Origin: Tepidisphaeraceae bacterium
GTDB taxonomy: Bacteria > Planctomycetota > Phycisphaerae > Tepidisphaerales > Tepidisphaeraceae
Assembly: GCA_965247815.1 (NCBI GenBank)
Contig: CBDFHW010000025.1
Span: 89,058-153,057 of the forward strand
Length of the DNA stretch: 64,000 bases
Direction: 5' to 3'
In this document: positions 7,426-29,614 of the stretch, piece by piece
Numbering within the stretch: position 1 is the stretch's first letter
Layout: every line of letters begins with the position of its first letter
Translations under genes and position numbers: made by a program
Notes under the pieces: generated by a model
Database searches by the model: none
Told to the model about the DNA's origin: nothing
The model's input: the letters and a program-made list of their open reading frames with translations, nothing else

Positions 7426-8556
7426 ATGGTAACAGTCAGTCAGCGAATCTCGCTTCGCGGCAGATTGTCATGGCACGCTTGCTTGTCCGGTTCTTACGCT
7501 GCGATTATTCTATTACTCGTGGCCAAACCCTTGAAAATCGGATCGGTGCAGTTGCGGAACAACCTGCTTCTTGCGCCCATTGCCGGGTATTGCGATCTGG
7601 CGTTTCGGCTGGTCGCGCGGGCGTGCGGCGACGTCGGGCTGGCCTGCACGGAACTGCTCTGCCCGCACGGGGTGCTCCGCGAGAATCGCAAGTCGATGGA
7701 ACTGGCCATGACCTGCGAGGCGGACGCTCCGCTGTGCATGCAGCTGTACGGCGGGAATGTCGAACTGCTTTGCGAGGCGGCGCGGTGGGCCGAGGACCGC
7801 GGGGCTCATGTCATCGACATCAACATGGGTTGCCCGGTCGATAAGGTGACCAAGCTGGACGGCGGCAGCAAGCTGCTCTGCAACCCCGATCATACGTTGA
7901 AAATGGTCGAGCGGATCGCGGGGGTGCTGCGCAATGTTCCGCTGACGGCCAAGCTGCGATTGGGCTGGGACGACACGTGTCTGGTGGCCCCGTATCTCGC
8001 GGCCCGGCTCGAAGAGACTGGCGTCAAGCTGGTCACTATTCACGGTCGAACCACCGCGATGAAATTCACTGGTCAGGCCCGGCTCGACGGCATCGCCGAA
8101 GTCGCCGCTGCGGTGAAGAACATCCCGGTCATCGGAAACGGCGACATCCGCACGCCGCAGGACGCGAAACACATGATCGGCACGACCGGCGTTGCCGGCG
8201 TGATGATCGGCCGGGGAGCGTTGTCCACGCCGTGGATCTTCCGCGACACCTGGAGCTACCTCACGACAGGAACCATCCCGCCGCCGCCGACGGTCGAAGA
8301 GATCTGCGACCTGATGCGAATGCATTTTATGGGGATGGTGCAATATCGCTGCGAACGGGCGGCCGTGTGCGAGTTCCGCAAGCGGATCAGCTGGTATGCC
8401 AAAAATCTGAACCCCTGTTCGCACCTGAAGGCCGAGATGCGGACGATCGAATGCGTCGCTGATTTCGAGGCCGCGATCGGCCGGTTCCTCGAGTTCCGTC
8501 GAACCCGGGCCGGAACACCGGTCGAAGAATCCGTCGCCGAGTTGGTCCTCGCCTAG
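7426..8556 (+). CDS. tRNA-dihydrouridine synthase (Dus family, DusB-like)
   Basis: Dus signature (LLLAPIAGYCDLAFR ... DINMGCPV ... KLRLGWDD). The true start is possibly the GTG at 7519, because the region upstream of it is AT-rich. Confidence 0.85.
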   Translation: MVTVSQRISLRGRLSWHACLSGSYAAIILLLVAKPLKIGSVQLRNNLLLAPIAGYCDLAFRLVARACGDVGLACTELLCPHGVLRENRKSMELAMTCEADAPLCMQLYGGNVELLCEAARWAEDRGAHVIDINMGCPVDKVTKLDGGSKLLCNPDHTLKMVERIAGVLRNVPLTAKLRLGWDDTCLVAPYLAARLEETGVKLVTIHGRTTAMKFTGQARLDGIAEVAAAVKNIPVIGNGDIRTPQDAKHMIGTTGVAGVMIGRGALSTPWIFRDTWSYLTTGTIPPPPTVEEICDLMRMHFMGMVQYRCERAAVCEFRKRISWYAKNLNPCSHLKAEMRTIECVADFEAAIGRFLEFRRTRAGTPVEESVAELVLA

Positions 8557-8676
8557 CCGCGCTCGAATGCTGCCGAGTGTTCCGACGGCCTTCGAACTTC
8601 GCCCGACCGTGTGAAGCCCGGCCGTGTGAACGCTTGTACGCCGGCCGCGCCCGGTTTAAAGTCTCTGCCGCCAACC

Positions 8677-9627
8677 ATGAATGTGCCTTCGTTTTTAACG
8701 GCCGTCCCGACCACGCTTCGAGAACTGGGCGCGCTCCCGCTTCCGGACTGGGTCCATCGGGTGTCCGGGCTCGCTTCGCCGGTCGGGATTCGCTGGGGCG
8801 ACGGCATCGGGGTCGGAGCGTGCAACTCGCGCGATTTTGCCCGAGTTTCTGTGAAGATTGCGAACGCCATCGACCTTGGCGGCGATGCGTTACAAAAATC
8901 GGTTCGGCTGGCGTATCGAAAACTTTTTGAACAGCTCGCGGCGACCACCGGTTTCTATCCGGTGCGATTCTGGAACTTTATTCCGGGCATCAACGACTCG
9001 CTCGAACGGCAGCAGACCCGTTACATGATTTTCAACGCGGGGCGGTTCCTGGCATTTAAGGGGCACTACGGGGAGGTTGACCTTTTCGACCGAAATGTTG
9101 CCACGGCATCGGGCGTCGGGCACCGCGGGAACGACCTGTGGATTCACTGTCTCGCGTCGCAGGTTCCGGGCGTCCATCTCGGTAATCCCCGGCAGTTGTC
9201 GCCTCATAATTATTCCGCGCGGTTCGGGCGGATGCCGCCTTGTTTCGCGAGGGCGACCCGGCTCCGCGATCAGATATTTATCGCCGGTACCGCGAGCATC
9301 CGCGGCGAGGAATCGCTGCACGACGAGCTGGGAAATCAGCTGGCGGAAACGCTGACGAATCTCGCCTGTGTCACCGAGGCCGCGTCGGTCGTCGGTCCCG
9401 CGGCGTGCCGATCGCAGGCCAACTGGCTGGCGAAACTGACTGACGTCCGGGTCTACCACCCGCGCCCGGCGGACGCGCCGATCATCAGCCAACGTCTGCG
9501 TGAACGACTCGGTGGACGGCCGCGCCTGGAATTTATCCATGCGGATTTGTGTCGGTCAGAACTACTGGTCGAGATCGAGGCGCTGGCGGACCTGTCCGAG
9601 CGAACCAAGCAAGGAGTTTTGCAGTGA
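8677..9627 (+). CDS. Chorismatase-like protein (FkbO/Hyg5/XanB2 family) with C-terminal RidA/YjgF-like domain
   Basis: C-terminal RidA-like motifs (FIAGTASIRGEE...ETLTNL...LLVEIEALA) plus an N-terminal extension of about 150 aa, as in hydroxybenzoate-forming chorismatases. The stop overlaps the next gene (GTGA). The alternative GTG start at 8611 is also possible. Confidence 0.5.
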   Translation: MNVPSFLTAVPTTLRELGALPLPDWVHRVSGLASPVGIRWGDGIGVGACNSRDFARVSVKIANAIDLGGDALQKSVRLAYRKLFEQLAATTGFYPVRFWNFIPGINDSLERQQTRYMIFNAGRFLAFKGHYGEVDLFDRNVATASGVGHRGNDLWIHCLASQVPGVHLGNPRQLSPHNYSARFGRMPPCFARATRLRDQIFIAGTASIRGEESLHDELGNQLAETLTNLACVTEAASVVGPAACRSQANWLAKLTDVRVYHPRPADAPIISQRLRERLGGRPRLEFIHADLCRSELLVEIEALADLSERTKQGVLQ

Positions 9628-10949
9628 ATACCGGCTCCCCGCAGTTCGACGTGATCGTGATCGGCGGGGGGCCCGCCGGGTCGACCGCGGGGCTGGTGCT
9701 CGCAAGCGCCGGCCTGAAGGCGGTCGTTCTCGAGAAAGCCGTTTTCCCGCGCTTCCATATTGGCGAATCGATTCTGCCGTTTAACTTGCCATTGATTCAA
9801 CAACTGGGACTCGAGCCCGAGCTGAGGAAGCTGCCGCACGTTCCCAAGCTGGGAGCCGAGTTCGTGATGGGCGACGATCCGGAAAGCTCGGTCCGATTCG
9901 GCTTCAACCAGGGCCTGTTGCCCGGTTCACCGACGTTTAACATCGAGCGCGCCGGGTTCGACGACATGTTGCTGAAAGCCGCTGCCAAGGCAGGCGCCGA
10001 CGTCCGACAGGACGCCCCAGTTGAGCGCGTCGTTCGCTTGTCCGACGGAGACGTTGCCGTGATGGCCGGGGGGAAGGAAATCACCGGGCGTTACATCCTC
10101 GACGCCAGCGGGCACGGCACCGTAATCGGCAAGCACCTGGGCACTCGCAAAAATATCTCCGACGAACAGCTGAAAAAGGTCGCCTACTTCGCCCATTTCG
10201 AAAATGTGCAGCGGCTCGCCGGTGATGAGGCCGGGCACCCCGGCATCGTGCTTACCAAGGAAGGCTGGTTCTGGTTGATCGGCGTCACCGATCAAAAGAC
10301 CAGCGTGGGGTTCGTGACCTGGCCCCATTTCGCCAGGACGATCAATGTGCCGCCGAACCGCCTGTTGCAATGGGCGATCGCCCGCTGCCCGGTCGTCCGC
10401 CAGCGCATGCAGAACGCGACCGGTCCGACGACCAACGAAGTGCTCGCGGACTTCAGCTACAAGTGCAAACCGTACGCGGGCCCCGGGTATTTTCTGATCG
10501 GTGACGCGGCCGCATTCCTGGACCCGATCTTTTCCACCGGCGTCACACTGGCGATGACCAGCGCGGTCGAGGCATCGCGAAAGATCGTTGCCGTTCTCAA
10601 GGGACAGCTGTCACCGCACAAGGCACAAAGGCAGTACGCGAAATTCGTTCACGACAGCACCTATGTTTTCTGGCGTTTGATCCGCGGGTCTTACAAGCAT
10701 TCCTTCCGCGAACTGTTCCTGAACGGCTCGGGCCCGCTTCAGATGCACAGCGCGGTGATTTCGATCCTGGCCGGCAATGTGTTCCCGAAACCCATTTTCG
10801 AGCTTCGCTGGCGCATGCGTGTCTTTGAGCTCTGCGTGTTCCTGAATCAATACCTGCCGCTGGTTCCCCGGCGGAAGGAATTCTCGCTCGTCTCCCAGGC
10901 CGACACCGAACCGCTGCCGACCAACACCGCCCAACCCAGCATGGCATGA
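9624..10949 (+). CDS. FAD-dependent oxidoreductase, flavin-dependent halogenase-like
   Basis: GTG at 9624 with an AAGGAG RBS at 9611. Rossmann motif VIVIGGGPAGS plus HIGESILP, and a WFWLI segment reminiscent of the halogenase WxWxIP motif. 4-nt overlaps on both sides. Confidence 0.65.
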   Translation: MNTGSPQFDVIVIGGGPAGSTAGLVLASAGLKAVVLEKAVFPRFHIGESILPFNLPLIQQLGLEPELRKLPHVPKLGAEFVMGDDPESSVRFGFNQGLLPGSPTFNIERAGFDDMLLKAAAKAGADVRQDAPVERVVRLSDGDVAVMAGGKEITGRYILDASGHGTVIGKHLGTRKNISDEQLKKVAYFAHFENVQRLAGDEAGHPGIVLTKEGWFWLIGVTDQKTSVGFVTWPHFARTINVPPNRLLQWAIARCPVVRQRMQNATGPTTNEVLADFSYKCKPYAGPGYFLIGDAAAFLDPIFSTGVTLAMTSAVEASRKIVAVLKGQLSPHKAQRQYAKFVHDSTYVFWRLIRGSYKHSFRELFLNGSGPLQMHSAVISILAGNVFPKPIFELRWRMRVFELCVFLNQYLPLVPRRKEFSLVSQADTEPLPTNTAQPSMA

Positions 10950-12391
10950 CGCATTCGACTCGGTTCCTGGAACGCCTTTCTCGTCACGCGACGGAACGAC
11001 CCGACGTGCCCGCGTTCGTCGATTCCGCCAGCGGGCTCGCCCTCACTTGGAAGTCGCTCGCCACGCAGGTCACCGAGCTCGCCGATCGTCTTCGTCGTTC
11101 ATTTCGGCCCGATTCCGTCGTACTGATCCGGTGCCCCAACGGCATCGATTTTCCAGTCGCGTTTCTGAGCGTTTTAGCCGCTGAGTGTGCCGCGTTCCCG
11201 CTTTCGGTCGACAGCCCGGAAATGGAAATTGAAACTCTCGGCAAACGTGTGAAGGCAGACGCGCTGCTGACCTGCGGCGGGGTAGCGGGCGCCGCGACCG
11301 GTTCGCACATCGATCTCCGCATTCTTGCAACGAGCAATCGTGACACTGCACCGGATGTCTCAGCGAGAACCCGCCTGATGCTGCTCAGTTCGGGTTCTAC
11401 CGGTGATCCGAAAATCGTCTGCCGGTCTGATAATTCGCTCGACGCGGTATGCGATCAGATGTGCCAAAGCATCAAAATCGGTCCCGACGATCGGATTCTG
11501 GCGACCGTCCCGCTCTGCCATTCCTACGGCATCGAACACGGCCTGCTCGCGCCGGTCTGGGCCGGCGCGACAGTTTACCTCTGCCGCGGACTCGACCTGC
11601 CTCTGATCAAGCGAGAGCTCACGCATTGCCGGATCACGCATTTACCGGGTGTGCCGTCCATGTACGAGATGCTGGCCAATCATGCCGAGCGCGGTGAACA
11701 GTATACAGAGCTTCGGGCGGCTTACTCCGCCGGCGCGCCGTTACCGCTCGGCGTTTTTGAAGCGGTGTCGAACCGCTGCGGTATCAAAGTCGGCCAGCTC
11801 TACGGCGCGAGTGAGATCGGGTCGGTGACCTATGCCGACCCGACGCTGCCGAACTTCGACCCGTCGAGCGTGGGCCGGGCCATGCCCGGTGCCCAAGTCA
11901 GAGTCACCGCCGGGACCGACCCAAAGCTCTCGCTAGCCGCGGGCGAAGTCGGCCACGTGTGGGTCTCCGCCGCGTCTCAGTTCAGCGGTTACTTTGACGA
12001 ACATGCTTCGCCGTTCGCCGACGGGTTTTATCCGACCGGTGACCTCGGCCGGCTCGATTCGTCGGGCAACCTGTTCGTCACCGGCCGCGTCAAGCTTCTG
12101 ATCGACGTCGGCGGGTTGAAGGTCAACCCGCTGGAAGTCGAAAACGTACTCATGCAACACCCCAGCGTCGGCGACTGTGTCGTTCTTCCGGTGCGGCAAA
12201 GCGCGACGATTCATCGACTGAAGGCGGTCATTACCGCCCGCGACCTTTATAACCCACCCCACATTGAAGAGCTCCGGCAATTCGCACGCGACCGCCTGGC
12301 GACCTATAAAGTCCCCCGCGTGTTCGAAATTCGCGACAGCCTCCCGCGGTCGGCGACCGGGAAGCTCATTCGACACTTGGTGGAAGCATGA
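10946..12391 (+). CDS. Aryl-acid AMP-ligase / adenylate-forming enzyme (XanA2/ApeH-like)
   Basis: AMP-binding motifs LSSGSTGDPK, YGASEIG, GDLGRLDSSGNLFVTGR and KVPR...SATGKL. ATGA overlap with the upstream gene. Confidence 0.85.
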   Translation: MTHSTRFLERLSRHATERPDVPAFVDSASGLALTWKSLATQVTELADRLRRSFRPDSVVLIRCPNGIDFPVAFLSVLAAECAAFPLSVDSPEMEIETLGKRVKADALLTCGGVAGAATGSHIDLRILATSNRDTAPDVSARTRLMLLSSGSTGDPKIVCRSDNSLDAVCDQMCQSIKIGPDDRILATVPLCHSYGIEHGLLAPVWAGATVYLCRGLDLPLIKRELTHCRITHLPGVPSMYEMLANHAERGEQYTELRAAYSAGAPLPLGVFEAVSNRCGIKVGQLYGASEIGSVTYADPTLPNFDPSSVGRAMPGAQVRVTAGTDPKLSLAAGEVGHVWVSAASQFSGYFDEHASPFADGFYPTGDLGRLDSSGNLFVTGRVKLLIDVGGLKVNPLEVENVLMQHPSVGDCVVLPVRQSATIHRLKAVITARDLYNPPHIEELRQFARDRLATYKVPRVFEIRDSLPRSATGKLIRHLVEA

Positions 12392-13152
12392 AACGCGTGC
12401 GGACGACATTCCATTTTCAGATGAGCAAACTCGTCTGGTCCGCAGGTCTGGCGCTGGCGTGCGGTTGTCACCCGGCCCACCCCGAGCACCTGGCGAAATA
12501 CTCGGCGATGGACGAGTCGTCCGAGGTTCGCACGCTCGCGCGGCGGTCCGCGCTGGTCAAAACCGTCTCGGGAACCGGCACCCTGGAACTCAGCCAGCCG
12601 AACGGCGACGGCGTCGTTCTCGACGTGGCCGTGGTGTTGCAGATGCCGAACCACGCCCGGCTCCGCGCCTGGAAGATGGGGCAGGCCGTGTTCGACTTGA
12701 CCGTTTCTCCCGAGGGGGTTTGGCTCGAGACGGGGCAGCAGGGTTCCAGAAAACAGCAGATCACGTCCGCCGGCGATAATGCCGCGCGGGTGACGCGGGG
12801 GCTGTCGCTGCTGAGCGGAGGTTTCTTCGACGACCCGACGCTGACCGGGTTCGACGAGGGCAATCAATTGATCCTTCGTCAGCAGCACCCCAACGAACCT
12901 GCCATCACGTGCCGGGTCGACCGTGACACGCTGACTCCCCGGCAGTTCCGGATGGTCGATTCGACCGGCGTCGAGCGATTCTCACTCACGCTCGGAGAAT
13001 ATGCCGATTCCGCAGGGCTGCTTTGGCCCCGGAAAGTGACCGCCGTTAGTTCCGTCGGCACGATCGTCGTCGCGCTCGACGACTTGGAATTGAACGGCGA
13101 AACCGCCGAAGGTGCTTTCGTCCCGCCGCCGCGTGCGGAGAAATTGCCGTGA
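12388..13152 (+). CDS. Secreted/lipoprotein of unknown function (LolA-like position upstream of an MMPL exporter)
   Basis: Signal peptide with Cys (LALACGC). ATGA overlap upstream and GTGA overlap downstream. Its position mirrors the LolA-like gene of aryl-polyene clusters. Confidence 0.55.
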   Translation: MKRVRTTFHFQMSKLVWSAGLALACGCHPAHPEHLAKYSAMDESSEVRTLARRSALVKTVSGTGTLELSQPNGDGVVLDVAVVLQMPNHARLRAWKMGQAVFDLTVSPEGVWLETGQQGSRKQQITSAGDNAARVTRGLSLLSGGFFDDPTLTGFDEGNQLILRQQHPNEPAITCRVDRDTLTPRQFRMVDSTGVERFSLTLGEYADSAGLLWPRKVTAVSSVGTIVVALDDLELNGETAEGAFVPPPRAEKLP

Positions 13153-15665
13153 CCGAAGGGGGCGATTTATCACTGCCCGCCCTTCCCGCGCGACGCTGGA
13201 AAACGGTCCTCGGGCTGGTCCTTACCGCAGGGGTGCTGTCGTACGCATTCATCAGCCGGATGTCCGCCGACCCGTCGCTGCAGAATATGTTCCCCAGGGG
13301 TGACGCTTCGGCGGCGGCGATGGTGCACGTGCTCAACAATTTTTCAGCCGCCGATGATCTGCTCGTGCTGGCCACTCTTCCCGACCCTCTGGACAAAGCG
13401 CGGCAACACGACCTGACCGACTTCGCGGCCCGGCTCGAAAAATCCATTCACGATTCACCGGAAGCGTCGCAACTGGTCGAAGCGTTCGCCTACCGACCGG
13501 ACGCCGAGTCCCGCGCGTTCATCGCCGGGAATGTAGTGCCCGCCGGGATCTACTACTTGAGCGACGAAAAATATGCCGCGGCGAAGCAGCGTCTGACCAA
13601 AGACGAAATGCGCCGTCAACTCCGGCAGGACGAGGCGATGCTTTCCGCGCCCGGTCCCGCGGCGGGGGCGCTGGCGTCGGTGTTTCTCAAAGACCCGCTG
13701 CGATTGCATGAATTTCTGGTCGACGAACTGAACGCGAGGAAGCCCGCCGGGTTCGGTGATTCGAGCGACGGTTTCTTCTCTCCCGACGGACGAAGCCTGC
13801 TGATCCGCGTCATCGGGAAACGATCGCTCAGCGATCTGGCCTACGCCCGGCAGTTGACCGACGTGATTACCACCCTGGCCGACCGCGTGAAAGAGTCCGT
13901 GCAGGTCGACATCAGCGGCGGGTACGCGATCGCGTCGACCAGCGAGCGGGCGATCCGCGGCGACATGATCGTCAGCGTCGTCTCGTCGGTCGTTCTGCTC
14001 CAATTGCTTTTCGTGCTCGCGTACCGGCGGCCGATTCGATATTTCATTCTGGCGTTTCTTCCCGTCGCGCTGGGCTTGCTCTACGGGTTCGGGGTCCGCG
14101 GCGCGATCTCGTCGACCATCTCGCCCGCGGCGGCGGTCGTCGGCGCCGTGCTGGCGGGCATGGGCATCGACTACACGGTGCTCTACCTTCCGCATTACCA
14201 CACCGCCCGCGACGCGCGCCTGTCTACCGTGGCAGCCGTGGGCCGGACGACCCGGCAACTCGCGTCCCCGCTTCTCGCGGCGTGCCTGACTTCGGTCATC
14301 GGTTTCCTGGCCGTCGGTTGGTCGAGCGTCCCCGCGTTGAAAGATTTCTCGCTGGTCGGATCGCTCGGTCTGATCGGATCGCTGCTGGCCGCGGTCGTGA
14401 TCCTTCCGGCGCTGTTGGCGTCGAACGACCGAGGCCCGGCCTCCGGCGCGCGGCCGCGGGTCAGACTCGAACCCTTGCTCGGTTGGGTCACCCGCCATCG
14501 CAGGCAGGTGCTCTGGGGATGGGCTGGTTTTCTGACATCGTTGGTCATTGTCGTCGCCGCCGTCCCGGGCCCACTACTGGCGATGGAATCAGACCTCACC
14601 GTCATGCACCCCCGGCCGAACAAGCCGTTGGACGCCGAGGCAAAGATTGCCAAACGCATGGGAACAGACCCGGGCGCGATGGCCGTCTTTTTGAAAGCGG
14701 ACACCGACGATCAGCTGATCCAGTTGGCGTACGACGTCCAGCGCAGGCTCTCGGATGCCGCGGTAAAACAGGCCGGGGTGGTCGACGTTTACGGCCTGTC
14801 GACTTTGTTGCCCGACCCGAGAGTCGTCGCAAATCGCCGTGGTCAAGTGTCGGCCGGCGAGACCGATCGCATCCTCGCCGATTTTCGATCCGCGGTTTCA
14901 GAAACGTCTTTCGACCCGGCCGCCTTTTCGGGGTACGAGACGTTTCTGCGATACACGCTCGACGGGCCCGCGACACCGACGATCGCCGACCTTCACCGCA
15001 GCCCCCGGCTGGCCGAAACGCTGCTGGGGCGAGTCCCCGGCGAAGCAATGACGCAGATTTTCTTCGCCGACCCGCTGGACACCCGGGCCCGGCGCGTCGC
15101 CGCAGTCGAGGCCATTCGACACGCGCTGGCGGGCTTGCCCGGCGTGACCCTGACCGGGCTCGGGGTGATCGGTCTCGACACGGAAACGGCGATCCAGCAC
15201 GACCTCCCGCGACTGCTCGCCGCCGCGGTCGGGTTGAACGTGGTTTATCTATTGATTCACTTCCGCCGGATTTCGTCAGTGCTGCTGTCGTTGATTCCCG
15301 CCGCCGTCAGCCTGCTCTGCCTCACCGCGGTCGTCCGGGTCACGGGCATGAAACTGAACCTGGTGAACTTGGTCGCACTGCCGCTGCTGATCGGCATTGA
15401 TGTGGACTACGGGATTTATCTCGTGAGCCTCGCGCGTCCGCGAGTGCCCATCGCGGGGGCCGAAGCGCGGCGGCGGGTGACGACCAGCGTGTACTCGGTG
15501 ATGATCTCGGCGGCGGCAAACGTGCTCGGCTTCGGCTCGCTGGTCACAACCAGCGTCCCGGCGATCCGGTCGCTCGGCTGGGCCGTCGGCGTCGGTGTGC
15601 TGGCCTGTTTTGCGGCAACGATCTTTCTGCTGGTGCCCCTGTTGATACGCGAGGCCGGCGAATGA
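13149..15665 (+). CDS. MMPL/RND-superfamily exporter (two 6-TM bundles with periplasmic domains)
   Basis: 838 aa with two hydrophobic blocks (about 270-430 and 690-830). Similar to HpnN, the ApeM exporter of aryl-polyene clusters and the xanthomonadin exporter. GTG start overlaps the previous stop. Confidence 0.8.
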   Translation: MTEGGDLSLPALPARRWKTVLGLVLTAGVLSYAFISRMSADPSLQNMFPRGDASAAAMVHVLNNFSAADDLLVLATLPDPLDKARQHDLTDFAARLEKSIHDSPEASQLVEAFAYRPDAESRAFIAGNVVPAGIYYLSDEKYAAAKQRLTKDEMRRQLRQDEAMLSAPGPAAGALASVFLKDPLRLHEFLVDELNARKPAGFGDSSDGFFSPDGRSLLIRVIGKRSLSDLAYARQLTDVITTLADRVKESVQVDISGGYAIASTSERAIRGDMIVSVVSSVVLLQLLFVLAYRRPIRYFILAFLPVALGLLYGFGVRGAISSTISPAAAVVGAVLAGMGIDYTVLYLPHYHTARDARLSTVAAVGRTTRQLASPLLAACLTSVIGFLAVGWSSVPALKDFSLVGSLGLIGSLLAAVVILPALLASNDRGPASGARPRVRLEPLLGWVTRHRRQVLWGWAGFLTSLVIVVAAVPGPLLAMESDLTVMHPRPNKPLDAEAKIAKRMGTDPGAMAVFLKADTDDQLIQLAYDVQRRLSDAAVKQAGVVDVYGLSTLLPDPRVVANRRGQVSAGETDRILADFRSAVSETSFDPAAFSGYETFLRYTLDGPATPTIADLHRSPRLAETLLGRVPGEAMTQIFFADPLDTRARRVAAVEAIRHALAGLPGVTLTGLGVIGLDTETAIQHDLPRLLAAAVGLNVVYLLIHFRRISSVLLSLIPAAVSLLCLTAVVRVTGMKLNLVNLVALPLLIGIDVDYGIYLVSLARPRVPIAGAEARRRVTTSVYSVMISAAANVLGFGSLVTTSVPAIRSLGWAVGVGVLACFAATIFLLVPLLIREAGE

Positions 15666-17203
15666 TCGCTATCGTTGAAAGCCTATTCCGAGCTCGGCAC
15701 CGCTCACGCGAACAGTTTCGCGCGGTAGTGGCCTGTGCAATTTTGTCGCTTGCGTTTACAACGTTCTGCGGGTGCGGCGCACCGACCGCCCGGCTGCGGT
15801 TTCCGATCGGCCCGCTGGAGCAGAACCACAGCGTCGTCTGGTATGCGGCGGGACACGCGGGCCGGCCCGGATTCGGGACGTCGCTCGACGAGACGGGGAC
15901 GCTGGACAAGATTTATTACGCGGACAAGGAGAACGGGAAACCGGACCGCATCTACCGGCTCGACGACTATGCCGACGACGAAGTCCCGCATGTTCTGATT
16001 CTGCTGGACTCGATCCCCTTCGACGCGATTACGGCATTTTATCGCGCGGGACACCTGCGATTTCTCGGCCCGCCGCAGAAGGTGATCGCGCCCTTCCCGT
16101 CATTGACAGAAATCTGTTTCAGCGACGTGCTCCGCGCGCCGCCGTTGCCGGGCATGATCGATCAGAGCTACGACCCGCGGACGAATCAAGTCCGCAGCGC
16201 GTTCTGGGATCGGGTCGAAGGCGACTGTGCGCCGTGGCAATGCCGGCTCGATTATCATGCCGCGTTCTGGGAAGACGGCATGTCGTTTCTCGAGCCCCGG
16301 GCTTGGTACGGGGCCGAGCTGGAACGCGCCCGCGGCGTAAGCGAGAAGAGCGGCTCACACGTTACGATCGTTTACCTGGGCAGCTCGGCGTCGATGGTTT
16401 GCAAGTACGGACGGCGGGGAATTGCCGAAACCTTGGAGCGGGCCGAGCAGCTTTGCCTCGAAATTCTTTACGAGCGCCACGGCGCGGTGAAGCTGTCGCT
16501 CATGGCCGACCACGGGCATAACCTGGTCCATTCGATCAATCTGCCGTTGGCCGACTACCTGAAGCAGGCCGGATTTCATCCGAAGGATTCGATCGACGGC
16601 CCGGACGACGTCGTGCCGGAGATCAACGGCCTCGTAACCTACGCCGGCGTGCAGACGTCGCAACCCGGGCGGGTCGCCGACGCGTTGCTGAATCACCCGC
16701 ACATCCAGTTGGTCATGTATCAGCACGGCGAGCGGATCTTCGTGCGAAGCAGCAAGGCCTCTGCCGAGATCGAATGCCGTGGGACGAAATTTCGGTACGC
16801 CCAAATCGCTGGCGACGTATTTAATTACAAGGCTGTGATCGGCAAGCTCGCGGCCGCGGGGTCCGTCGGCGCCGACGGATTCATTTCGGACCACGACTGG
16901 TTCAGCGCGACCGTGGACCATGAATGGCCCGACGCGGTCCGGCGAGTCTGGGACGCGTTCCACCGCAACGCGGTCTATCCGCCCCGGGTGATGCTCACGG
17001 TCGACGACGGGTATTGCGTGGGTCTTCCGGAATATGAGAAATACATCGACATGGCTTCCACGCACGGTTCGCTGAACCAGTTGAACAGCGCGAGCTTTGT
17101 GATGACGATGAACCGCAGCAAACCAATGGGCGCGATGCGGTCTCGCGAGGTTTTGCAATGGCTCGAACCGGGCTTCGAGCCCCACATCAGGACGAATCAG
17201 TGA
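15662..17203 (+). CDS. Alkaline-phosphatase-superfamily type I phosphodiesterase/nucleotide pyrophosphatase-like lipoprotein
   Basis: Lipobox-like FCGCG. NPP-family motifs VLILLDSIPFDAI (compare LDGFR) and LMADHGHN (compare DHGM). ATGA overlap with the exporter gene. Confidence 0.6.
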   Translation: MIAIVESLFRARHRSREQFRAVVACAILSLAFTTFCGCGAPTARLRFPIGPLEQNHSVVWYAAGHAGRPGFGTSLDETGTLDKIYYADKENGKPDRIYRLDDYADDEVPHVLILLDSIPFDAITAFYRAGHLRFLGPPQKVIAPFPSLTEICFSDVLRAPPLPGMIDQSYDPRTNQVRSAFWDRVEGDCAPWQCRLDYHAAFWEDGMSFLEPRAWYGAELERARGVSEKSGSHVTIVYLGSSASMVCKYGRRGIAETLERAEQLCLEILYERHGAVKLSLMADHGHNLVHSINLPLADYLKQAGFHPKDSIDGPDDVVPEINGLVTYAGVQTSQPGRVADALLNHPHIQLVMYQHGERIFVRSSKASAEIECRGTKFRYAQIAGDVFNYKAVIGKLAAAGSVGADGFISDHDWFSATVDHEWPDAVRRVWDAFHRNAVYPPRVMLTVDDGYCVGLPEYEKYIDMASTHGSLNQLNSASFVMTMNRSKPMGAMRSREVLQWLEPGFEPHIRTNQ

Positions 17204-17234: not shown

Positions 17235-18044
17235 ATGAACGACATTGCTCTGAGGGCAGGGCCGGCGCTGGGCCTCGCGTTGAACGCCCCGGCAACAGTC
17301 TGGGCGGGGTCGGGGGTCGCAATTGCAACGATGGCCATTGGCGGAGTGATCTGGGCTTCCTGTGACCCGCGGGCCGGGGTGTGGGGGCCGGTCCGATGGC
17401 GGGGGGCTGACCTGAGCCGCAAACGCGTCGCGCTGACTTTCGATGACGGCCCGACGCCGGGCGCGACCGACGCCGTGCTGGAAGCGCTCGCTGATCTGCA
17501 CGTACCGGCCGCTTTTTTTGTGATCGGCGAGAACGGCCGCCGGCACCCGCAACTGTTACAGAAGATTCGCGACCAGGGACACCTGATCGGCAATCATTCT
17601 TTCGACCATTCGCGAACGGGTTATCTCCGAGGCGGCGTGTATTGGGACCGGCAGCTGGCCGACACCGACCGGGCGGTGCTGGAAGCGACAGGTGAACGAC
17701 CGATGTTCTTCCGCGCCCCGATCGGGGTCCGAACCCCTCGGCTGACGGCAGCGGTCCGACGTGCCGGTAAAACGCAGGTGACGTGGTCGCGGCGCGGACT
17801 GGACGGCGTCGAGCGATCCCCGGAATATATTCGGGACCGGCTGGTCTCCGGGACCGAAGCCGGGGATATTCTCGTCCTTCACGACGGGGTCGAACCGGGC
17901 CGGCAACGCGACCCGACGTCGACGATCAAGGCCATCCCGATGCTGGTAGCCGGCCTGCGTGAACGCGGGTTCGAATTCGTCCGGCTCGACCAGCTGCTGG
18001 AACTTTCAGGCAGCGCCCCGGCGGCCGTAAGTCAGACGAGGTAA
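17235..18044 (+). CDS. Polysaccharide deacetylase (NodB homology domain, CE4)
   Basis: ALTFDDGP motif, HSFDHS His motif and LVLHD. N-terminal TM/signal region. Confidence 0.8.
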   Translation: MNDIALRAGPALGLALNAPATVWAGSGVAIATMAIGGVIWASCDPRAGVWGPVRWRGADLSRKRVALTFDDGPTPGATDAVLEALADLHVPAAFFVIGENGRRHPQLLQKIRDQGHLIGNHSFDHSRTGYLRGGVYWDRQLADTDRAVLEATGERPMFFRAPIGVRTPRLTAAVRRAGKTQVTWSRRGLDGVERSPEYIRDRLVSGTEAGDILVLHDGVEPGRQRDPTSTIKAIPMLVAGLRERGFEFVRLDQLLELSGSAPAAVSQTR

Positions 18045-18052
18045 GCAACCCA

Positions 18053-18655
18053 ATGAGACGACCGATCCAGATTTGTATCGCGGCCGTTTTGATCGAACTC
18101 GTTGTCTCCGCAATCTCCGTCGCAGGCACCATCGAGTTTCGGCCGACCACGATGGACGCTCCGAAATATCCGACGACCTTCGTCGACGACCGCCGGTGGG
18201 ACGTCGAAGTGCTCGGCACCGGGCTGGCGGACGTGACCCATCGGCACGTGGCCATGGGCGGTGTAACCGTCGGGGTCGGGTATTACGTTTTGCAAAACCT
18301 GGCGATTCAACTCGACGTCAGCGGGTACGGCTTTAACGAAGGGCACGTGAATGGTCCCGCCGCGGGAGTCACGATCGGGCTTCGGCATCATGTGTTGAGC
18401 GTCGGGAAGTCGTCGATTTTTTTCGACATCTCGTTCGGAGAGATCTGGGCCGACCATGATTTGCCCGTTCACGGAACGCACCGCAACAATACGTTCGAGT
18501 TCGGGGTCGGCGTGTCGTACCCGATCGGCGACAATGTTTACCTGATCGGCGGGCCCCGGTTTTTTCATCTCTCGAACGCCAACGACGGGGGCAGCGATCG
18601 GAATCCGAGCATCAACGCAGTGCAGGGCGTCCTGGGCGTGATGTGGAAGTTCTAG
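18053..18655 (+). CDS. Outer-membrane beta-barrel, PagL-like lipid A 3-O-deacylase / acyloxyacyl hydrolase family
   Basis: 200 aa with signal peptide and alternating beta-strand pattern. C-terminal FHLSNA (His-x-Ser catalytic dyad motif as in PagL). Confidence 0.5.
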   Translation: MRRPIQICIAAVLIELVVSAISVAGTIEFRPTTMDAPKYPTTFVDDRRWDVEVLGTGLADVTHRHVAMGGVTVGVGYYVLQNLAIQLDVSGYGFNEGHVNGPAAGVTIGLRHHVLSVGKSSIFFDISFGEIWADHDLPVHGTHRNNTFEFGVGVSYPIGDNVYLIGGPRFFHLSNANDGGSDRNPSINAVQGVLGVMWKF

Positions 18656-18820
18656 GGTAGACGGATTTCCCTGAGACCCGCCGATTGTTCTCGGTCGCAA
18701 TTTGGTCATGCGGCGTCGGCCCGCGGTGGTCTAAAACAGCGCTACGATCCGAGGGCCGTTTGCGAGCTGAAGCCGAACGGCTGCAATGTTGTCTAGCGTT
18801 CGAGTTGAGGTCGGACCGCA

Positions 18821-19411
18821 TCAGAGTCGGCAAGCCCAGACGAACAGGCCGACGATCGCGGCTTCGGCGCAGACGATGACGAGCAGGTTTCCGAGCCAGC
18901 CCGCCGGGTTGTCTTTGATCTGGCTCGGGGTGACGCGGGCCGGGTCGAGGCGGTGTTGCTCGAGCGCGAGAATGAGGTTGGCACGAAACCGCGGGATGCC
19001 GAGTTGCTGGGCCCGGGACAAAAGCCGGGCGCGATCGGAGAACGTGAATGCGGCGGACTGTAAGCTCGCGGCCGCGTGATCGGCGAACCCCCGTTCCACC
19101 GCCGAGGTTGCCGATCCCGGCTCGGCCGGGAGATATCTTGCTGATGTCGTCGCTGTCGTTGTTGCCAGTGGAGGGACACGCCGCGCGGAAGTTTTAATGG
19201 ATCTGGCGGAAAGAAGAGACGTGGCTCGACCTGTCGACACACCAGCGGAGGCGACGACCGAGCCCGCCGCTGCGTCGCGACGGTGAGCCAGACCGGTGAG
19301 CGCGTGGTGCCTGAGCAGCGGGTCGCGGGCGAAGCTCGCGCGAATTCTCCGTGCCTGCCGACGGTACTCGTCGCTCGACACGGGCCGGGATGAAACAAGA
19401 ATTGCGGACAC
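18821..19411 (-). CDS. Hypothetical tail-anchored membrane protein
   Basis: ORF downstream of egtD on the same strand. Single C-terminal TM (GWLGNLLVIVCAEAAIVGLFVWA). Low complexity, weakly supported. Confidence 0.3.
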   Translation of the reverse strand: MSAILVSSRPVSSDEYRRQARRIRASFARDPLLRHHALTGLAHRRDAAAGSVVASAGVSTGRATSLLSARSIKTSARRVPPLATTTATTSARYLPAEPGSATSAVERGFADHAAASLQSAAFTFSDRARLLSRAQQLGIPRFRANLILALEQHRLDPARVTPSQIKDNPAGWLGNLLVIVCAEAAIVGLFVWACRL

Positions 19412-19470
19412 CGCCGGTAATATACCACCCGGGCGGAAACGCCGGATTAGATTCGTTCACCCGCGCCAGG

Positions 19471-20481
19471 TCATTGACAAGTCTGTGCGGTAAGCAGTTG
19501 CAGCGAGAACAGCTTTTGTTCGTCGGTCCAGACGTTTCGGACGCGGTACCCCGCCGATGCCGCGAGCGTTTCGAACTGCGGGAGCGTGTATTTGCAGCAG
19601 CTTTCGGAGTGGATGCTTTCCCCGACTTCGAAGCTGAAACTGCGGCCCGCAATGCTTACCGACTGCTCGGCGAGGCTGACCAGGTGCATTTCCATTCGGC
19701 CGGTCGACGGAAAGAACGGGGCGTAGTGCGCGAAAGCGTCTGTCTGAAAGTTTCCACCGAGTTCGCGATTGATTCGATGCAGCAGGTTTAAGTTGAACTC
19801 GGCCGTGACTCCTTTCGAATCGTTGTAAGCAGTGTGCAGTCGGACGGGGTCTTTTTTCAGATCCACGCCGATGAGCAGGCCGCTCCCCGCCCCGCACGAT
19901 TCTCGAATGCTCCGTAGGAAGTTGGCGGCATCCGCCGGTTCAAAATTCCCGATCGTCGATCCGGGAAAGTAAGCGACGACATTGGACCGGTTGGTCTTGG
20001 AAACCGGCAGCTCGAACGCGGTGGTGTAATCAGCACAGACCGGCGAGATCTGAATCTGCGGGTATCGGACCGCGAGCGAACGGGCGGACGTCATCAGGTG
20101 TTCACGCGAAATGTCGATCGGCACGTAGCCGGCCATCGTTTGCAAATGGTCCAGCAACACGCGGGTCTTCAGACTGCTTCCGCTGCCGTACTCGACCAGC
20201 AGACAATCAGGCCCGATCCGCCTGGCGATCGATTTTGCGTTCACCGACGTGATGCGGAGTTCGGTCCGTGTCGGGTAGTACTCGTCAAGCTCACAGATGC
20301 GGTCGAACAGCTGCGAACCCCGTTGGTCGTAAAAAAATTTACACGGCAAACGCTTGCGCGGCTGTGAAAGTCCTTGAAGCACTTCAGCGCGGAAGTCAGA
20401 CACCGCGGGCTCGTAATCGGTCAGCAACGGTTCCGGGTAGACGGCGCGGCTGTCGGCGATGGCGGGTGAAGAAAAGATCAT
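19471..20481 (-). CDS. egtD: L-histidine N-alpha-methyltransferase (ergothioneine biosynthesis)
   Basis: Methyltransf_33 / EgtD-like (FYDQRGSQLFDRICELDEYYPTRTE ... LVEYGSGSS). ATG at 20481 (MIFSSPAI) with GGAG upstream. Adjacent to egtB. Confidence 0.85.
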   Translation of the reverse strand: MIFSSPAIADSRAVYPEPLLTDYEPAVSDFRAEVLQGLSQPRKRLPCKFFYDQRGSQLFDRICELDEYYPTRTELRITSVNAKSIARRIGPDCLLVEYGSGSSLKTRVLLDHLQTMAGYVPIDISREHLMTSARSLAVRYPQIQISPVCADYTTAFELPVSKTNRSNVVAYFPGSTIGNFEPADAANFLRSIRESCGAGSGLLIGVDLKKDPVRLHTAYNDSKGVTAEFNLNLLHRINRELGGNFQTDAFAHYAPFFPSTGRMEMHLVSLAEQSVSIAGRSFSFEVGESIHSESCCKYTLPQFETLAASAGYRVRNVWTDEQKLFSLQLLTAQTCQ

Positions 20482-20589
20482 GAAACTGACTCCAAAAGAA
20501 TCCGCCTGACACGCTCCGCGCGTCTGGACGCAAAAACAAATGACCGGCCGCTTCATGCTCCTGGACGTGTTACCGCAGCGACTCGAGTG

Positions 20590-21900
<1,311 letters not shown>

Positions 21901-27016: not shown

Positions 27017-27126
27017 TGTCGGTATATAGCCGTCGGCTCTACGCGATTCAGTCACACAAACCGGTCGACGGATAATATAGTCCGGCGGTCTTGCCGGATC
27101 TGACGCTTAACGGAAATGAGTCCAGC

Positions 27127-28182
27127 GTGTTAGTCATTCGCCCGATCGCGATGGAAGATTTGACCGCGCTGGAAGCGTTGAGTCATTCGACCGGGTTCGG
27201 GCTTACGTCGCTGCCACGAGATTCAACGCTGTTGAAGCGGCGGATCCGGGCCAGCGTCCGCGGGTTCAAAAATCTCAGCGACGAAGACCCGCCGCGGGGC
27301 GAAACGTACCTGTTCGTTCTCGAGGACACCGCCACTGGGAAGATTGCCGGCACGAGCGCGATTGTTTCCAAGGTCGGCGGGTTCGACCCGTTCTATGGAT
27401 ACCGGCTCGAAACATCGGTTCATGCCTCGGCGCAGCTGAACGTCCGCAAGGAGATTCGCGTTCTTCATTTGGTCGAGGAACACGACGGGCCGTGCGAAAT
27501 CGGCAGCCTGTTTCTGTCCCCGGAATATCGTGGCGGGGGCAACGGCCGGCTGCTGTCGCTGTGCCGATTTTCATTCATGGCCGACCACCTCGATTACTTC
27601 GACCCGGTGGTGATCTCCGAGCTCCGCGGTGTGGTTGATGCGACGGGCGGGTCGCCGTTCTGGGACGCCGTCGGACACCATTTCTTCGACATCGATTTCC
27701 CGAGCGCTGATTACCTCAGCATGGTGGATAAGAAGTTCATCGCGGACTTAATGCCCGAGCACCCGATTTACATCCCTCTGCTGCCGTACAGCGCCCAGGC
27801 TGTGATCGGGAAGGTTCAACCCGATACCGAACCGGCGCTTGCGATGTTGACCGGGGAGGGATTCGAATCGAATCAGATGGTTGATATTTTCGACGCCGGC
27901 CCGGTGGTGCGGTGCCCCCTTCGGCGGATCCGCGCGATTCGCGAATCGTCGACGGCCGTCGTGCGCGAGATTGGTGAATGCTCCGGTGCGGACATGATTC
28001 TGACTAATACCCGCCACGAGTTTCGCGCCTGCCTGGGGGCCGTGGAACTCATTACCGACGGCGTCAGACTAAACGCAGAAACCGTCACGGCGTTAAAAAT
28101 AAAAGTCGGCGACTCGGTCCGTTTCGTCGCCCCGAAGCCACCCTTGTCGAAAGCGGGACACGATGCCCCCGATTCAATCTGA
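27127..28182 (+). CDS. astA: Arginine N-succinyltransferase
   Basis: GTG start giving VLVIRPIAMEDL... (compare E. coli MMVIRPVERSD...). Conserved LTSLP, HAS, EIGSLFL and IFDAGP blocks. Overlaps astD by 20 nt. Confidence 0.8.
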   Translation: MLVIRPIAMEDLTALEALSHSTGFGLTSLPRDSTLLKRRIRASVRGFKNLSDEDPPRGETYLFVLEDTATGKIAGTSAIVSKVGGFDPFYGYRLETSVHASAQLNVRKEIRVLHLVEEHDGPCEIGSLFLSPEYRGGGNGRLLSLCRFSFMADHLDYFDPVVISELRGVVDATGGSPFWDAVGHHFFDIDFPSADYLSMVDKKFIADLMPEHPIYIPLLPYSAQAVIGKVQPDTEPALAMLTGEGFESNQMVDIFDAGPVVRCPLRRIRAIRESSTAVVREIGECSGADMILTNTRHEFRACLGAVELITDGVRLNAETVTALKIKVGDSVRFVAPKPPLSKAGHDAPDSI

Positions 28183-29614
28183 TCGAGTGTTTCAATCGAT
28201 CAATCCCGCCACGGGTGAGATGCTCTGGCGGGGGGCCGAGGCGTCACCGGCCCTCATCGAGACAGCAGTCGCAACGGCGCGAAACGCGGCCGGGGACTGG
28301 GCCGCTCTGCCGGTCGAACAGCGCATTGAAGTGTTCAATCAGTTTGCCGCCCGCCTGAAAGGCAATCGAGCCGGCCTTGCGGAAATGATTTCAAAGGAAG
28401 TCGGCAAGCCGAGATGGGAAGCGCTGACCGAAGTCGACGCGATGATCAACAAAATTCCGCTGTCGATCCAGGCGTTCGGTGAACGCCGAAGGCCGACCGT
28501 GACCGAGTCGGCCGGGGTGCGGGCGGCGACGCGGTTCAAGCCCCACGGGGTTGTGGCCGTGCTCGGTCCGTTCAACTTCCCGGGGCACCTTCCGAACGGT
28601 CATATCGTGCCGGCGTTGCTGGCCGGGAACGCGGTCATCTTCAAGCCCAGCGAGCTCGCGCCGGGCGTGGCCGAAGCCACGATCACCTGCTGGCGCGAAA
28701 CCTCGATCCCGGACGGCGTCATCCAATGTCTGCAGGGTGGCCGCACGGTAGGAGAAGCGCTGGTTACCCACCGTGAGATCAACGGGATCTTCTTCACCGG
28801 CAGCTCCCACGTCGGGAAAGCGATGCGGCAGACGCTGGCGGATCGTCCGGAAAAGATCCTCGCGATCGAGATGGGCGGTAATAACCCGCTCATTGTTCAC
28901 GAAGCGTCGAACGTATCGGCGGCCGTTTACCATACGATCCAGTCTGCATTCATCACGGCAGGACAACGTTGCACCTGTGCACGGCGGTTGATCGTGCCTG
29001 CCGGTTCCGCGGGCGACACGTTTATCGCCGCGCTCACCGTCGCAGCGCGCGCCATTCGAGTCGGACCGCCGTCGCTCGATCCCGAGCCGTTCATGGGACC
29101 GGTGATCAACGACGGTGCCGCGTACAAACTTTTGGCTTCGCAAGCTGAACTTCAACGCGTCGGCGGGCTTAGTTTGTTGGAAATGAAAACCGTCGGAGAT
29201 CGCCCGGCGTTGTTATCGCCCGGGTTGATTGACGTGACGGCAATCGCTGATCGAAGCGATTGCGAGATTTTCGGACCGCTTCTGCAGGTCATCCGAGTCG
29301 CCGACTTTGATGCCGCGATGATCGAGGCGAATCGCACGGCGTACGGACTGGCCGCCGGATTACTCAGCGATAAACAGGAACTGTTCGACCTGTTTTTTCA
29401 GAAGATTAGAGCCGGGGTCGTCAGCTGGAACCGGCCAACTACCGGCGCGAGCGGGAGCCTGCCGTTCGGCGGTATCGGCGCAAGCGGGAACCACCGGCCC
29501 AGCGGATATTACGCCGCGGACCATTGTTCTTATGCCGTCGGCAGTCTCGAGTCGGAGAGACTTGAACTGCCCGCAACCCTCACGCCCGGCTTGGCGCTCA
29601 CCGCCCCGTCTTGA
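28163..29614 (+). CDS. astD: Aldehyde dehydrogenase, succinylglutamate-semialdehyde dehydrogenase-like
   Basis: ALDH family (catalytic Cys in ITAGQRCTCARR, Glu in EMGGNNP). The AstD assignment comes from coupling to astA. Confidence 0.7.
   Translation: MPPIQSDRVFQSINPATGEMLWRGAEASPALIETAVATARNAAGDWAALPVEQRIEVFNQFAARLKGNRAGLAEMISKEVGKPRWEALTEVDAMINKIPLSIQAFGERRRPTVTESAGVRAATRFKPHGVVAVLGPFNFPGHLPNGHIVPALLAGNAVIFKPSELAPGVAEATITCWRETSIPDGVIQCLQGGRTVGEALVTHREINGIFFTGSSHVGKAMRQTLADRPEKILAIEMGGNNPLIVHEASNVSAAVYHTIQSAFITAGQRCTCARRLIVPAGSAGDTFIAALTVAARAIRVGPPSLDPEPFMGPVINDGAAYKLLASQAELQRVGGLSLLEMKTVGDRPALLSPGLIDVTAIADRSDCEIFGPLLQVIRVADFDAAMIEANRTAYGLAAGLLSDKQELFDLFFQKIRAGVVSWNRPTTGASGSLPFGGIGASGNHRPSGYYAADHCSYAVGSLESERLELPATLTPGLALTAPS

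Follow-up and report, generated by a model that had tools for sequence, protein, structure and literature searches.

The window analysed here is a stretch of 64,000 nt from a genome assembly of a Tepidisphaeraceae bacterium (Planctomycetota, Phycisphaerae; contig CBDFHW010000025.1, positions 89,058 to 153,057). It contains a gene whose product is assigned, by its sequence and predicted fold, to the flavin-dependent halogenases (FDHs). The gene lies between candidate genes for a chorismatase and an AMP-forming ligase, in an operon that also encodes a putative exporter and envelope proteins. The predicted catalytic lysine is conserved, the genes are organized as an operon, and the locus is syntenic with complete aryl-polyene clusters of related bacteria. 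The protein is probably a two-component FDH of the phenol/pyrrole ('variant B') type, whose substrate is the hydroxybenzoate-derived head group of a xanthomonadin-like aryl polyene.

The GTG start codon of the FDH gene (9624-9626) overlaps the TGA stop codon (9625-9627) of the upstream open reading frame (ORF), forming GTGA, as described in the initial annotation of this region, which was made from the sequence alone. The frame is open as far as TGA 10947-10949, and this stop codon in turn overlaps the start codon of the ligase gene (ATGA). The annotation also reported an AAGGAG ribosome-binding site 8 nt upstream of the gene; the site is present, but the spacer is 7 nt. A mechanical ORF list opens a longer alternative in the same frame at GTG 9549. 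The start at 9624 is likelier, since homologues of 434-454 aa align from its residue 1 and the Shine-Dalgarno box is situated before this codon. Five consecutive junctions, at 9624, 10946, 12388, 13149 and 15662, have overlaps of 4 nt (GTGA or ATGA), and thus the FDH gene is embedded in a tightly coupled operon. The features are listed in Table 1. The gene upstream of the chorismatase gene is dusB (Pfam, NCBIfam). No RNA family from Rfam was found anywhere in the window, and a scan for promoters and terminators around the operon produced background level only.

Table 1. Predicted features of the operon, of the FDH protein and of the adjacent region; positions are those of the window
Feature	Position	Strand	Basis or comment
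Flavin-dependent halogenase-like (FDH) gene, 441 aa	9624..10949	+	ORF reading, Pfam, NCBIfam, PDB search, model
AAGGAG ribosome-binding site	9611..9616	+	sequence reading; spacer 7 nt to GTG 9624
GxGxxG dinucleotide-binding motif, G14-G-G-P-A-G19	9663..9680	+	translation
HIGESILP motif, H45-P52	9756..9779	+	counterpart of 'GESLLP' in CndH and CmlS
Codon of K75, predicted catalytic lysine	9846..9848	+	HMMER alignments
W215-F-W-L-I-G220, WxWxIP variant (Pro to Gly)	10266..10283	+	
Second FAD-binding motif GDAAAFLDPIFSTG, G293-G306	10500..10541	+	near-identical in CndH, PltA, FasV, CmlS
FkbO/Hyg5/XanB2-family chorismatase	8611..9627	+	PF21168 52 bits; TIGR04444 116 bits, below cut-off 325
Stand-alone AMP-forming (aryl) ligase	10946..12391	+	PF00501 181 bits; PF13193 53 bits
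Conserved putative lipoprotein, 254 aa	12388..13152	+	signal-peptide/lipobox-like N-terminus
MMPL/RND-type exporter	13149..15665	+	PF03176 115 bits; HAE3 TIGR00921 146 bits
Hypothetical protein, 513 aa, lipoprotein-like N-terminus	15662..17203	+	coupled to MMPL gene
Polysaccharide deacetylase-family protein	17235..18044	+	PF01522 96 bits
Small outer-membrane beta-barrel (PagL/OMP_b-brl-like)	18053..18655	+	weak Pfam matches, 23 bits each
Histidine-specific methyltransferase, EgtD-like	19471-20556	-	PF10017 370 bits
FGE-sulfatase/DinB_2 protein, EgtB-like	20590-21900	-	

The assignment to FDHs is based on profiles, solved structures and a predicted fold. The top Pfam match of the protein is Trp_halogenase (90.1 bits, versus 72.1 for FAD_binding_3). 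In NCBIfam the top match is CmlS (177 bits), followed by QhpG (119), LodB (111) and the geranylgeranyl reductase (GGR) superfamily TIGR02032 (110); these scores reach no equivalog cut-off (900 for CmlS), and that of GGR is below its cut-off of 158.8. In a search of PDB with the single sequence, the 14 best matches comprise 13 named halogenases and the unannotated 3nix. The E-values are 1.7e-51 for CndH, 3.3e-49 for FasV (8zop), 2.6e-43 for PltA, 5.4e-43 for CmlS and 1.2e-42 for Bmp2; ChlB4, RadH, Mpy16, PltM and CtcP also occur among the best matches. The first non-halogenase is GGR 3oz2 (5.6e-12). With a family profile of 27 homologues the gap is wider, halogenases scoring 1e-68 to 1e-53 and GGR 5e-19. 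An AlphaFold2 model built on the alignment of the 27 homologues has a mean predicted local distance difference test score (pLDDT) of 86.7 and a predicted template modelling score (pTM) of 0.87. In a Foldseek comparison of this model with PDB, the 40 best matches are FDH entries and 3nix, and PltA is the first, with a template modelling (TM) score of 0.82-0.84. The halogenase call of the initial annotation is thus supported by profile, PDB sequence and fold comparisons, all of which rank halogenases first. The two checks proposed there, profile scores against FAD monooxygenase and GGR families and a structural model, both came out in favour of an FDH.

The matches to TIGR02032 and 3oz2 might be taken to suggest a GGR-like or other FAD-dependent reductase, or else an inactive remnant. 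Either is very improbable. The match to TIGR02032 falls short of the cut-off of this family, and the halogenases score far higher. The gene is intact and translationally coupled, and more than 100 clusters of homologues at 58-85% identity have invariant catalytic residues.

PrnA aligns with the protein over residues 8-58 only, that is, over the N-terminal Rossmann segment. The alignment with PrnA proposed in the initial annotation was of little use, as these approximately 50 N-terminal residues make PrnA a poor comparator, but the lysine could be checked with CndH, PltA, CmlS and FasV instead. The protein is placed on the phenol/pyrrole branch and not on the tryptophan-halogenase branch, and its predicted sequence has every testable feature of phenol/pyrrole FDHs but one.

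The candidate catalytic lysine K75 aligns with the lysines of CndH ('FPIKRGG'), FasV ('QRKYGG'), PltA ('PKKFGA') and CmlS ('VKKPSA'). It is invariant in all 27 close homologues and in all 82 homologues from loci of species-representative genomes. In PrnA and RebH its counterpart is presumably K79. An essential role of the catalytic lysine in FDHs is documented, e.g. for K87 of PltM (PMC6424973). Among the 27 close homologues, G14, G16, P17 and G19 of the dinucleotide-binding motif are invariant and G15 nearly so; the run F44-H-I-G-E-S49 and the tryptophans W215 and W217 are invariant as well, and with five exceptions these tryptophans are also kept among the 82 locus homologues. The motifs listed in the initial annotation, GGGPAGS (residues 14-20), HIGESILP (45-52) and WFWLI (215-219), are all present. 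The second FAD-binding motif fits the consensus GD(A/S)AxFxDPxxSxG, and its S-T-G presumably forms the halide-site backbone.

The initial annotation would have regarded the absence of the conserved active-site lysine and glutamate as a refutation. The lysine is present, but the glutamate of tryptophan halogenases is replaced by Phe303, at a position that we take to be that of E346 in PrnA. The aligned residue is Phe in CndH, PltA and CmlS and Leu in FasV. Since CndH, PltA and CmlS also carry Phe, the missing glutamate is a trait of the branch rather than a refutation.

Two groups of characterized halogenases are closest to the protein. The pyrrolyl-S-carrier-protein halogenases PltA, Mpy16 and Bmp2 (5dbj, 5buk, 5bva) provide the best whole-length structural matches (TM 0.76-0.84). 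They are similar in size (approximately 410-455 aa), have a helical C-terminal region, and share the lysine and the GxGxxG and GDAAxFxDPxFSxG motifs. However, the identity is about 26-32%, these enzymes act on pyrroles bound to the carrier proteins of pathways of the non-ribosomal peptide synthetase type, their WxWxIP is canonical, and the window encodes no carrier protein. CndH (chondrochloren; 3e1t), FasV (fasamycin; 8zop) and CmlS (chloramphenicol; 3i3l) provide the top sequence matches (profile E-values 1e-61 to 1e-68). They have the aligned lysine and a hydrophobic residue at the Phe303 position, and 'GES(L/I)LP' is common to the window protein, CndH and CmlS, whereas FasV reads GESLIT. 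At the same time, the identity is 28-35%, the pathways differ (a tyrosyl-derived unit, a free aromatic polyketide and a dichloroacetyl unit, respectively), and the window protein lacks the additional C-terminal domains of CndH and CmlS. A third relative, 3nix, is an uncharacterized flavoprotein of Cytophaga hutchinsonii solved by structural genomics. It is the sole solved structure that aligns through the C-terminal 'LAG-x-V(F/W)' region, up to residue 389, with TM 0.77-0.82 normalized by the query and 0.85-0.89 normalized by the target. However, its identity is about 30%, and its sequence contains VWIWVIP, and GNATEF where the window protein reads GDAAAF.

The family is large. More than 120 protein clusters have 58-85% identity to the FDH protein, and those with a named source come from metagenome-assembled genomes (MAGs) of Phycisphaerales or Tepidisphaeraceae. 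At least 600 matching stretches were found in species-representative genomes of Planctomycetota, Acidobacteriota, Verrucomicrobiota, Myxococcota and Proteobacteria. These counts contradict the initial annotation, according to which halogenases are rare in these genomes. A rough neighbour-joining tree separates all the locus homologues included from CndH, CmlS, FasV, PltA and 3nix; the tree comprises 81 of the 82 locus homologues (L022 was left out), has no support values, and its taxa were selected by two peptide patterns. The sequences from Phycisphaerae, Acidobacteriota, Verrucomicrobiota and Proteobacteria appear to form a clade separate from all structurally characterized FDHs. No biochemical characterization of a xanthomonadin or aryl-polyene halogenase, and no paper citing 8ZOP, was found in the searchable literature.

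The genomic neighbourhood is conserved in related bacteria. In seven loci (L001, L002, L003, L011-L013 and L022; L001 and L002 are relatives sequenced at complete-genome scale) the gene order is as follows: a fusion of an acyl carrier protein (ACP) with a FabA/ApeI dehydratase, a LolA-like or hypothetical gene, a Lip_A acyltransferase, a ketosynthase fused with a chain-length factor (KS-CLF), chorismatase, FDH, ligase, lipoprotein and MMPL exporter. The ACP-dehydratase fusion of the relatives is encoded 5-6 kb upstream of the FDH gene. Locus L006 retains the order from KS-CLF through MMPL and the deacetylase, with the ACP-dehydratase match elsewhere in the locus. This gene set is that of a predicted cluster of the xanthomonadin/aryl-polyene type. 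The ligase gene follows the FDH gene in Phycisphaerae and Isosphaeraceae loci. Proteobacterial homologues (35-38% identity) adjoin a chorismatase gene, and the Luteimonas locus L075 also has genes for a ketoreductase (KR), MMPL and LolA_3 nearby. Hydroxybenzoate supply combined with an aryl-AMP/ACP ligase, a feature of aryl-polyene clusters, occurs in the window too (PF21168, Hyg5 3e-27, PF00501, PF13193), in agreement with the neighbours named in the initial annotation, a chorismatase upstream and an AMP-binding ligase downstream. Aryl-polyene clusters have already been noted in genome papers on Phycisphaerae, one of which describes a Tepidisphaeraceae isolate with two antiSMASH 'arylpolyene' regions (PMC13514998).

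A halogenase gene has been reported in the xanthomonadin clusters of Xanthomonas, whose pigments carry zero to two bromines (PMC3691225). In Azoarcus sp. BH72, arcA (halogenase) is located beside arcB (XanB2-type chorismatase), the cluster includes the polysaccharide deacetylase gene arcN, and two unlinked loci cooperate in the pigment pathway (PMC3949708). The window resembles such xanthomonadin-type clusters (Xanthomonas pig, Azoarcus arcA/arcB) in having an FDH-like gene directly beside a gene for an FkbO/Hyg5/XanB2-type chorismatase, as well as an AMP-ligase, an MMPL-type exporter and a polysaccharide deacetylase (PMC3949708, PMC3691225). The likeness to Xanthomonas is based on the published description and on other Proteobacterial homologues rather than on the sequence of X. 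campestris or X. oryzae. In the neighbour-joining tree the window protein falls together with Proteobacterial homologues that have this arrangement, apart from the structurally characterized FDHs. Its nearest counterpart in predicted function is the halogenase of xanthomonadin-type clusters, itself an uncharacterized enzyme. There are differences as well: the identity to Proteobacterial proteins is approximately 35-38%, the chorismatase gene precedes the FDH gene here and follows it there, the WxWxIP motif has Gly for Pro, the host is a planctomycete of the Phycisphaerae type, and the polyketide synthase (PKS) half is absent from the window.

These data can be combined into the following candidate pathway. 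The chorismatase would convert chorismate to 3- or 4-hydroxybenzoate, and the AMP-ligase would activate the hydroxybenzoate for a type II PKS building a xanthomonadin-like aryl polyene. By analogy with the established chemistry of FDHs, FADH2 provided by a separate reductase would react with O2 and with chloride or bromide to form hypohalous acid, which would be passed to Lys75 and delivered onto an electron-rich aromatic carbon. Judging by the gene context, halogenation would most likely be directed at the hydroxyphenyl head group that stems from 3- or 4-hydroxybenzoate. The lipoprotein, the MMPL exporter, the deacetylase and the outer-membrane barrel may move the lipid pigment to, or anchor it in, the outer membrane. 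Both the halogenating activity of the FDH protein and its choice of halide are presumed here. As the substrate, an ACP-tethered hydroxybenzoyl group is slightly favoured over the free acid or the finished polyene, because PltA is the best structural match and an ACP is encoded in the relatives. The initial annotation predicted a halogenated aromatic starter, as in xanthomonadin. The aryl-polyene context in the relatives agrees with this, but halogenation of the starter is only one of several possible timings. In any case the FDH gene is a predictable tailoring gene of a known kind of pathway rather than part of a new system.

Several observations, described in this and the following paragraphs, weigh against this interpretation. 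In sequence, the protein is as close to halogenases of free substrates (FasV, RadH) as to carrier-dependent ones (PltA, Bmp2, Mpy16), and similarity therefore gives no indication of the form of the substrate. The operon showed no flavin reductase gene, though no search aimed at one was made. No assay of any member of this FDH clade was found in the searchable literature. Further, no KS, ACP, dehydratase, KR or acyltransferase gene is present across the 64 kb. Pfam detected no PP-binding (carrier protein) gene in the window, and tblastn searches with four L001 proteins (KS-CLF, ACP-dehydratase, acyltransferase and LolA-like) gave no match there. As the PKS core is absent, the window holds at most half of an aryl-polyene cluster, the one for tailoring and export, and the PKS half is presumably located elsewhere in the source genome.

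Finally, the closest relatives with readable context (L083 and L084, 72-73% identity) have the chorismatase-FDH-ligase trio only. One could suppose that the halogenase acts on free hydroxybenzoate before ligation, or that the trio makes a small halogenated benzoate-derived product without a polyene. The three genes are translationally coupled in the order chorismatase, FDH, ligase; they lack PKS and export genes in L083 and L084, and PKS genes in the window. FasV leads the profile matches and is able to chlorinate a free polyketide in vitro (PMC11420778). There is also a planctomycete precedent: in strain 10988, the chorismate lyase BaaA and the brominase BaaB are proposed to produce 3,5-dibromo-p-anisic acid via free 4-hydroxybenzoate (bioRxiv 10.1101/723874). 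Compared by description, both loci pair an enzyme converting chorismate to hydroxybenzoate with a flavin-dependent halogenase. However, BaaA is a UbiC-like lyase and not an FkbO/Hyg5-type chorismatase, and the description of baaA and baaB is of a pair of genes and names neither a ligase nor an exporter. Moreover, a complete set of aryl-polyene PKS genes adjoins the trio in the majority of related genomes. In the window the trio shares its operon with genes for an MMPL exporter and for envelope proteins of the kind usual in lipid pigment export, and the best whole-length structural match, PltA, is carrier-dependent. On balance a free substrate or a small product is unlikely, and halogenation of the head group of an aryl polyene is preferred.

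The trio itself seems to move as a unit. In L083 (8965-12705) and L084 (1971-5642) no MMPL, deacetylase or PKS genes accompany it, and the next gene encodes a membrane protein of approximately 585 aa resembling glycosyltransferases of the ArnT/PMT type. It is conceivable, but quite improbable, that in this lineage the trio is an autonomous mobile module, whose WxWxIG-type enzyme may supply a halogenated hydroxybenzoyl group to some product that is not a classical aryl polyene, e.g. a halogenated benzoyl-lipid or an envelope-anchored conjugate exported by the MMPL protein. Were this doubtful possibility true, soil Phycisphaerae would be a widespread and unrecognized source of organohalogen lipids.

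The WxWxIP motif may also count against a halogenase. It reads WFWLIG, that is, both tryptophans and Ile219 are kept, but Pro is replaced by Gly220, so that the likeness noted in the initial annotation is incomplete. Gly or Ala at the last position is found only in the Phycisphaerae/Isosphaeraceae subclade of the window protein and in one Thermoanaerobaculia MAG (L014). Pro is kept in L006, L007, L012 and L013, which are Phycisphaerae with the same gene context, and in all Verrucomicrobiota, Proteobacteria and other relatives. The protein could be a flavin monooxygenase hydroxylating the aryl ring, descended from a halogenase and having a loosened WxWxIP 'gate' (Pro220 to Gly). Besides the Gly or Ala throughout the subclade, the paper on Azoarcus names arcA as a halogenase gene but is silent on halogenation of the pigment, arcuflavin (PMC3949708), and QhpG (119 bits) and LodB (111 bits) are detectable relatives. 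A hydroxylase is nevertheless quite improbable: Lys75 is invariant, both tryptophans are nearly always kept, sister lineages at 50-56% identity (L006, L007, L012, L013) have the full WxWxIP in the same context, and halogenases rank well above monooxygenases in every profile, sequence and fold comparison. As assignments of the protein, hydroxylase and GGR were rejected on the scores and the conservation of the lysine; the change from Pro to Gly and the silence of the Azoarcus paper are reasons to give a hydroxylase some weight.

The arrangement of the genes varies among the relatives. Locus L085 contains the PKS half without FDH, ligase or MMPL genes: the stretches 7589-13293 and 17356-20071 comprise genes for ACP-dehydratase, LolA (PF03548), acyltransferase, KS-CLF and a short chorismatase of 255 aa, followed by two transposase genes (DDE_5 and DDE_Tnp_1). 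The transposase genes beside this PKS half suggest that the cluster has been split by rearrangement. In L022 (10001-12072), from a long-contig Phycisphaerales MAG, the FDH homologue loses its reading frame over the second FAD motif ('GGGRRLFSGPDFFDRC...'), and the ligase match begins unusually far downstream; the frame break is probably an assembly indel or else the mark of a pseudogene. Many homologues at 34-41% identity in L015-L082 (Verrucomicrobiota, Polyangiaceae and others) have no chorismatase gene within 10 kb. Several of these loci, among them L029, L061, L064, L068, L069 and L078, contain genes for MMPL, Lip_A acyltransferase and ACP-dehydratase 2-6 kb downstream of the homologue. 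This arrangement suggests aryl-polyene/flexirubin-like clusters with a different supply of the starter. The cluster architecture is evidently fluid.

The best PDB match of the chorismatase is Hyg5 (5ag3, 3e-27), FkbO being weaker (1.8e-19), and the protein retains the 'CRS' cysteine, which is Ser in the sequence variant 5a3k. It appears nearer to the 3-hydroxybenzoate synthase Hyg5 than to FkbO, and its predicted product is 3- or 4-hydroxybenzoate. The start of its gene is ambiguous. The ORF opens at GTG 8611 and similarity to the relatives begins near 8704; a start at ATG 8677 would remove a non-conserved N-terminus of 22 residues. No clear ribosome-binding site was seen at GTG 8611 or at ATG 8677.

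Homologues of the 254-aa lipoprotein are encoded in 10 loci, always between the ligase and MMPL genes. The protein has no match in Pfam (even at E<=5), NCBIfam or the PDB sequences, and its single-sequence AlphaFold model is unusable (pLDDT 36.7). It was considered as a LolA-like protein, but the hhalign probability against the Luteimonas LolA_3 is 0.1% and Pfam gives no match, so this label was dropped. The LolA (PF03548) gene of the relatives belongs to the PKS half and is not situated beside MMPL. The operon has an MMPL export gene (115 bits) whose 254-aa neighbour lacks LolA similarity. The 513-aa protein has no Pfam or PDB match, and only L022 among the 82 loci encodes a homologue; other clusters have a gene for 71-197 aa in this place. 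It carries a 'MADHGH' stretch reminiscent of metal sites in the alkaline-phosphatase superfamily. The polysaccharide deacetylase gene is found at the same position in L001, L003, L006 and L022, and homologues of the small outer-membrane barrel occur in L001, L002, L011 and L022.

An ergothioneine-type gene pair (19471-21900) lies directly downstream of the operon on the opposite strand. At 27091-29614 (+), the genes for the arginine N-succinyltransferase AstA (413 bits) and then an aldehyde dehydrogenase (377 bits) form part of the arginine succinyltransferase pathway, which is unrelated to the FDH gene.

Halogenase genes beside those of XanB2-type chorismatases have already been reported in Xanthomonas and Azoarcus, and the family is common in this lineage. 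The annotation is sound, but a tailoring gene of this sort was to be expected and is no surprise. The value of the finding lies in the trio as a portable module, in the natural WxWxIG variant, and in a clade from which the searchable literature holds no assayed enzyme. If the predicted activity is real, the WxWxIG variant of the subclade would serve as a natural test case for the importance of the Pro in WxWxIP, and the trio would offer a compact three-gene route from chorismate to activated halo-hydroxybenzoate for pathway engineering. It would also mean that abundant soil planctomycetes make halogenated aryl-polyene lipids.

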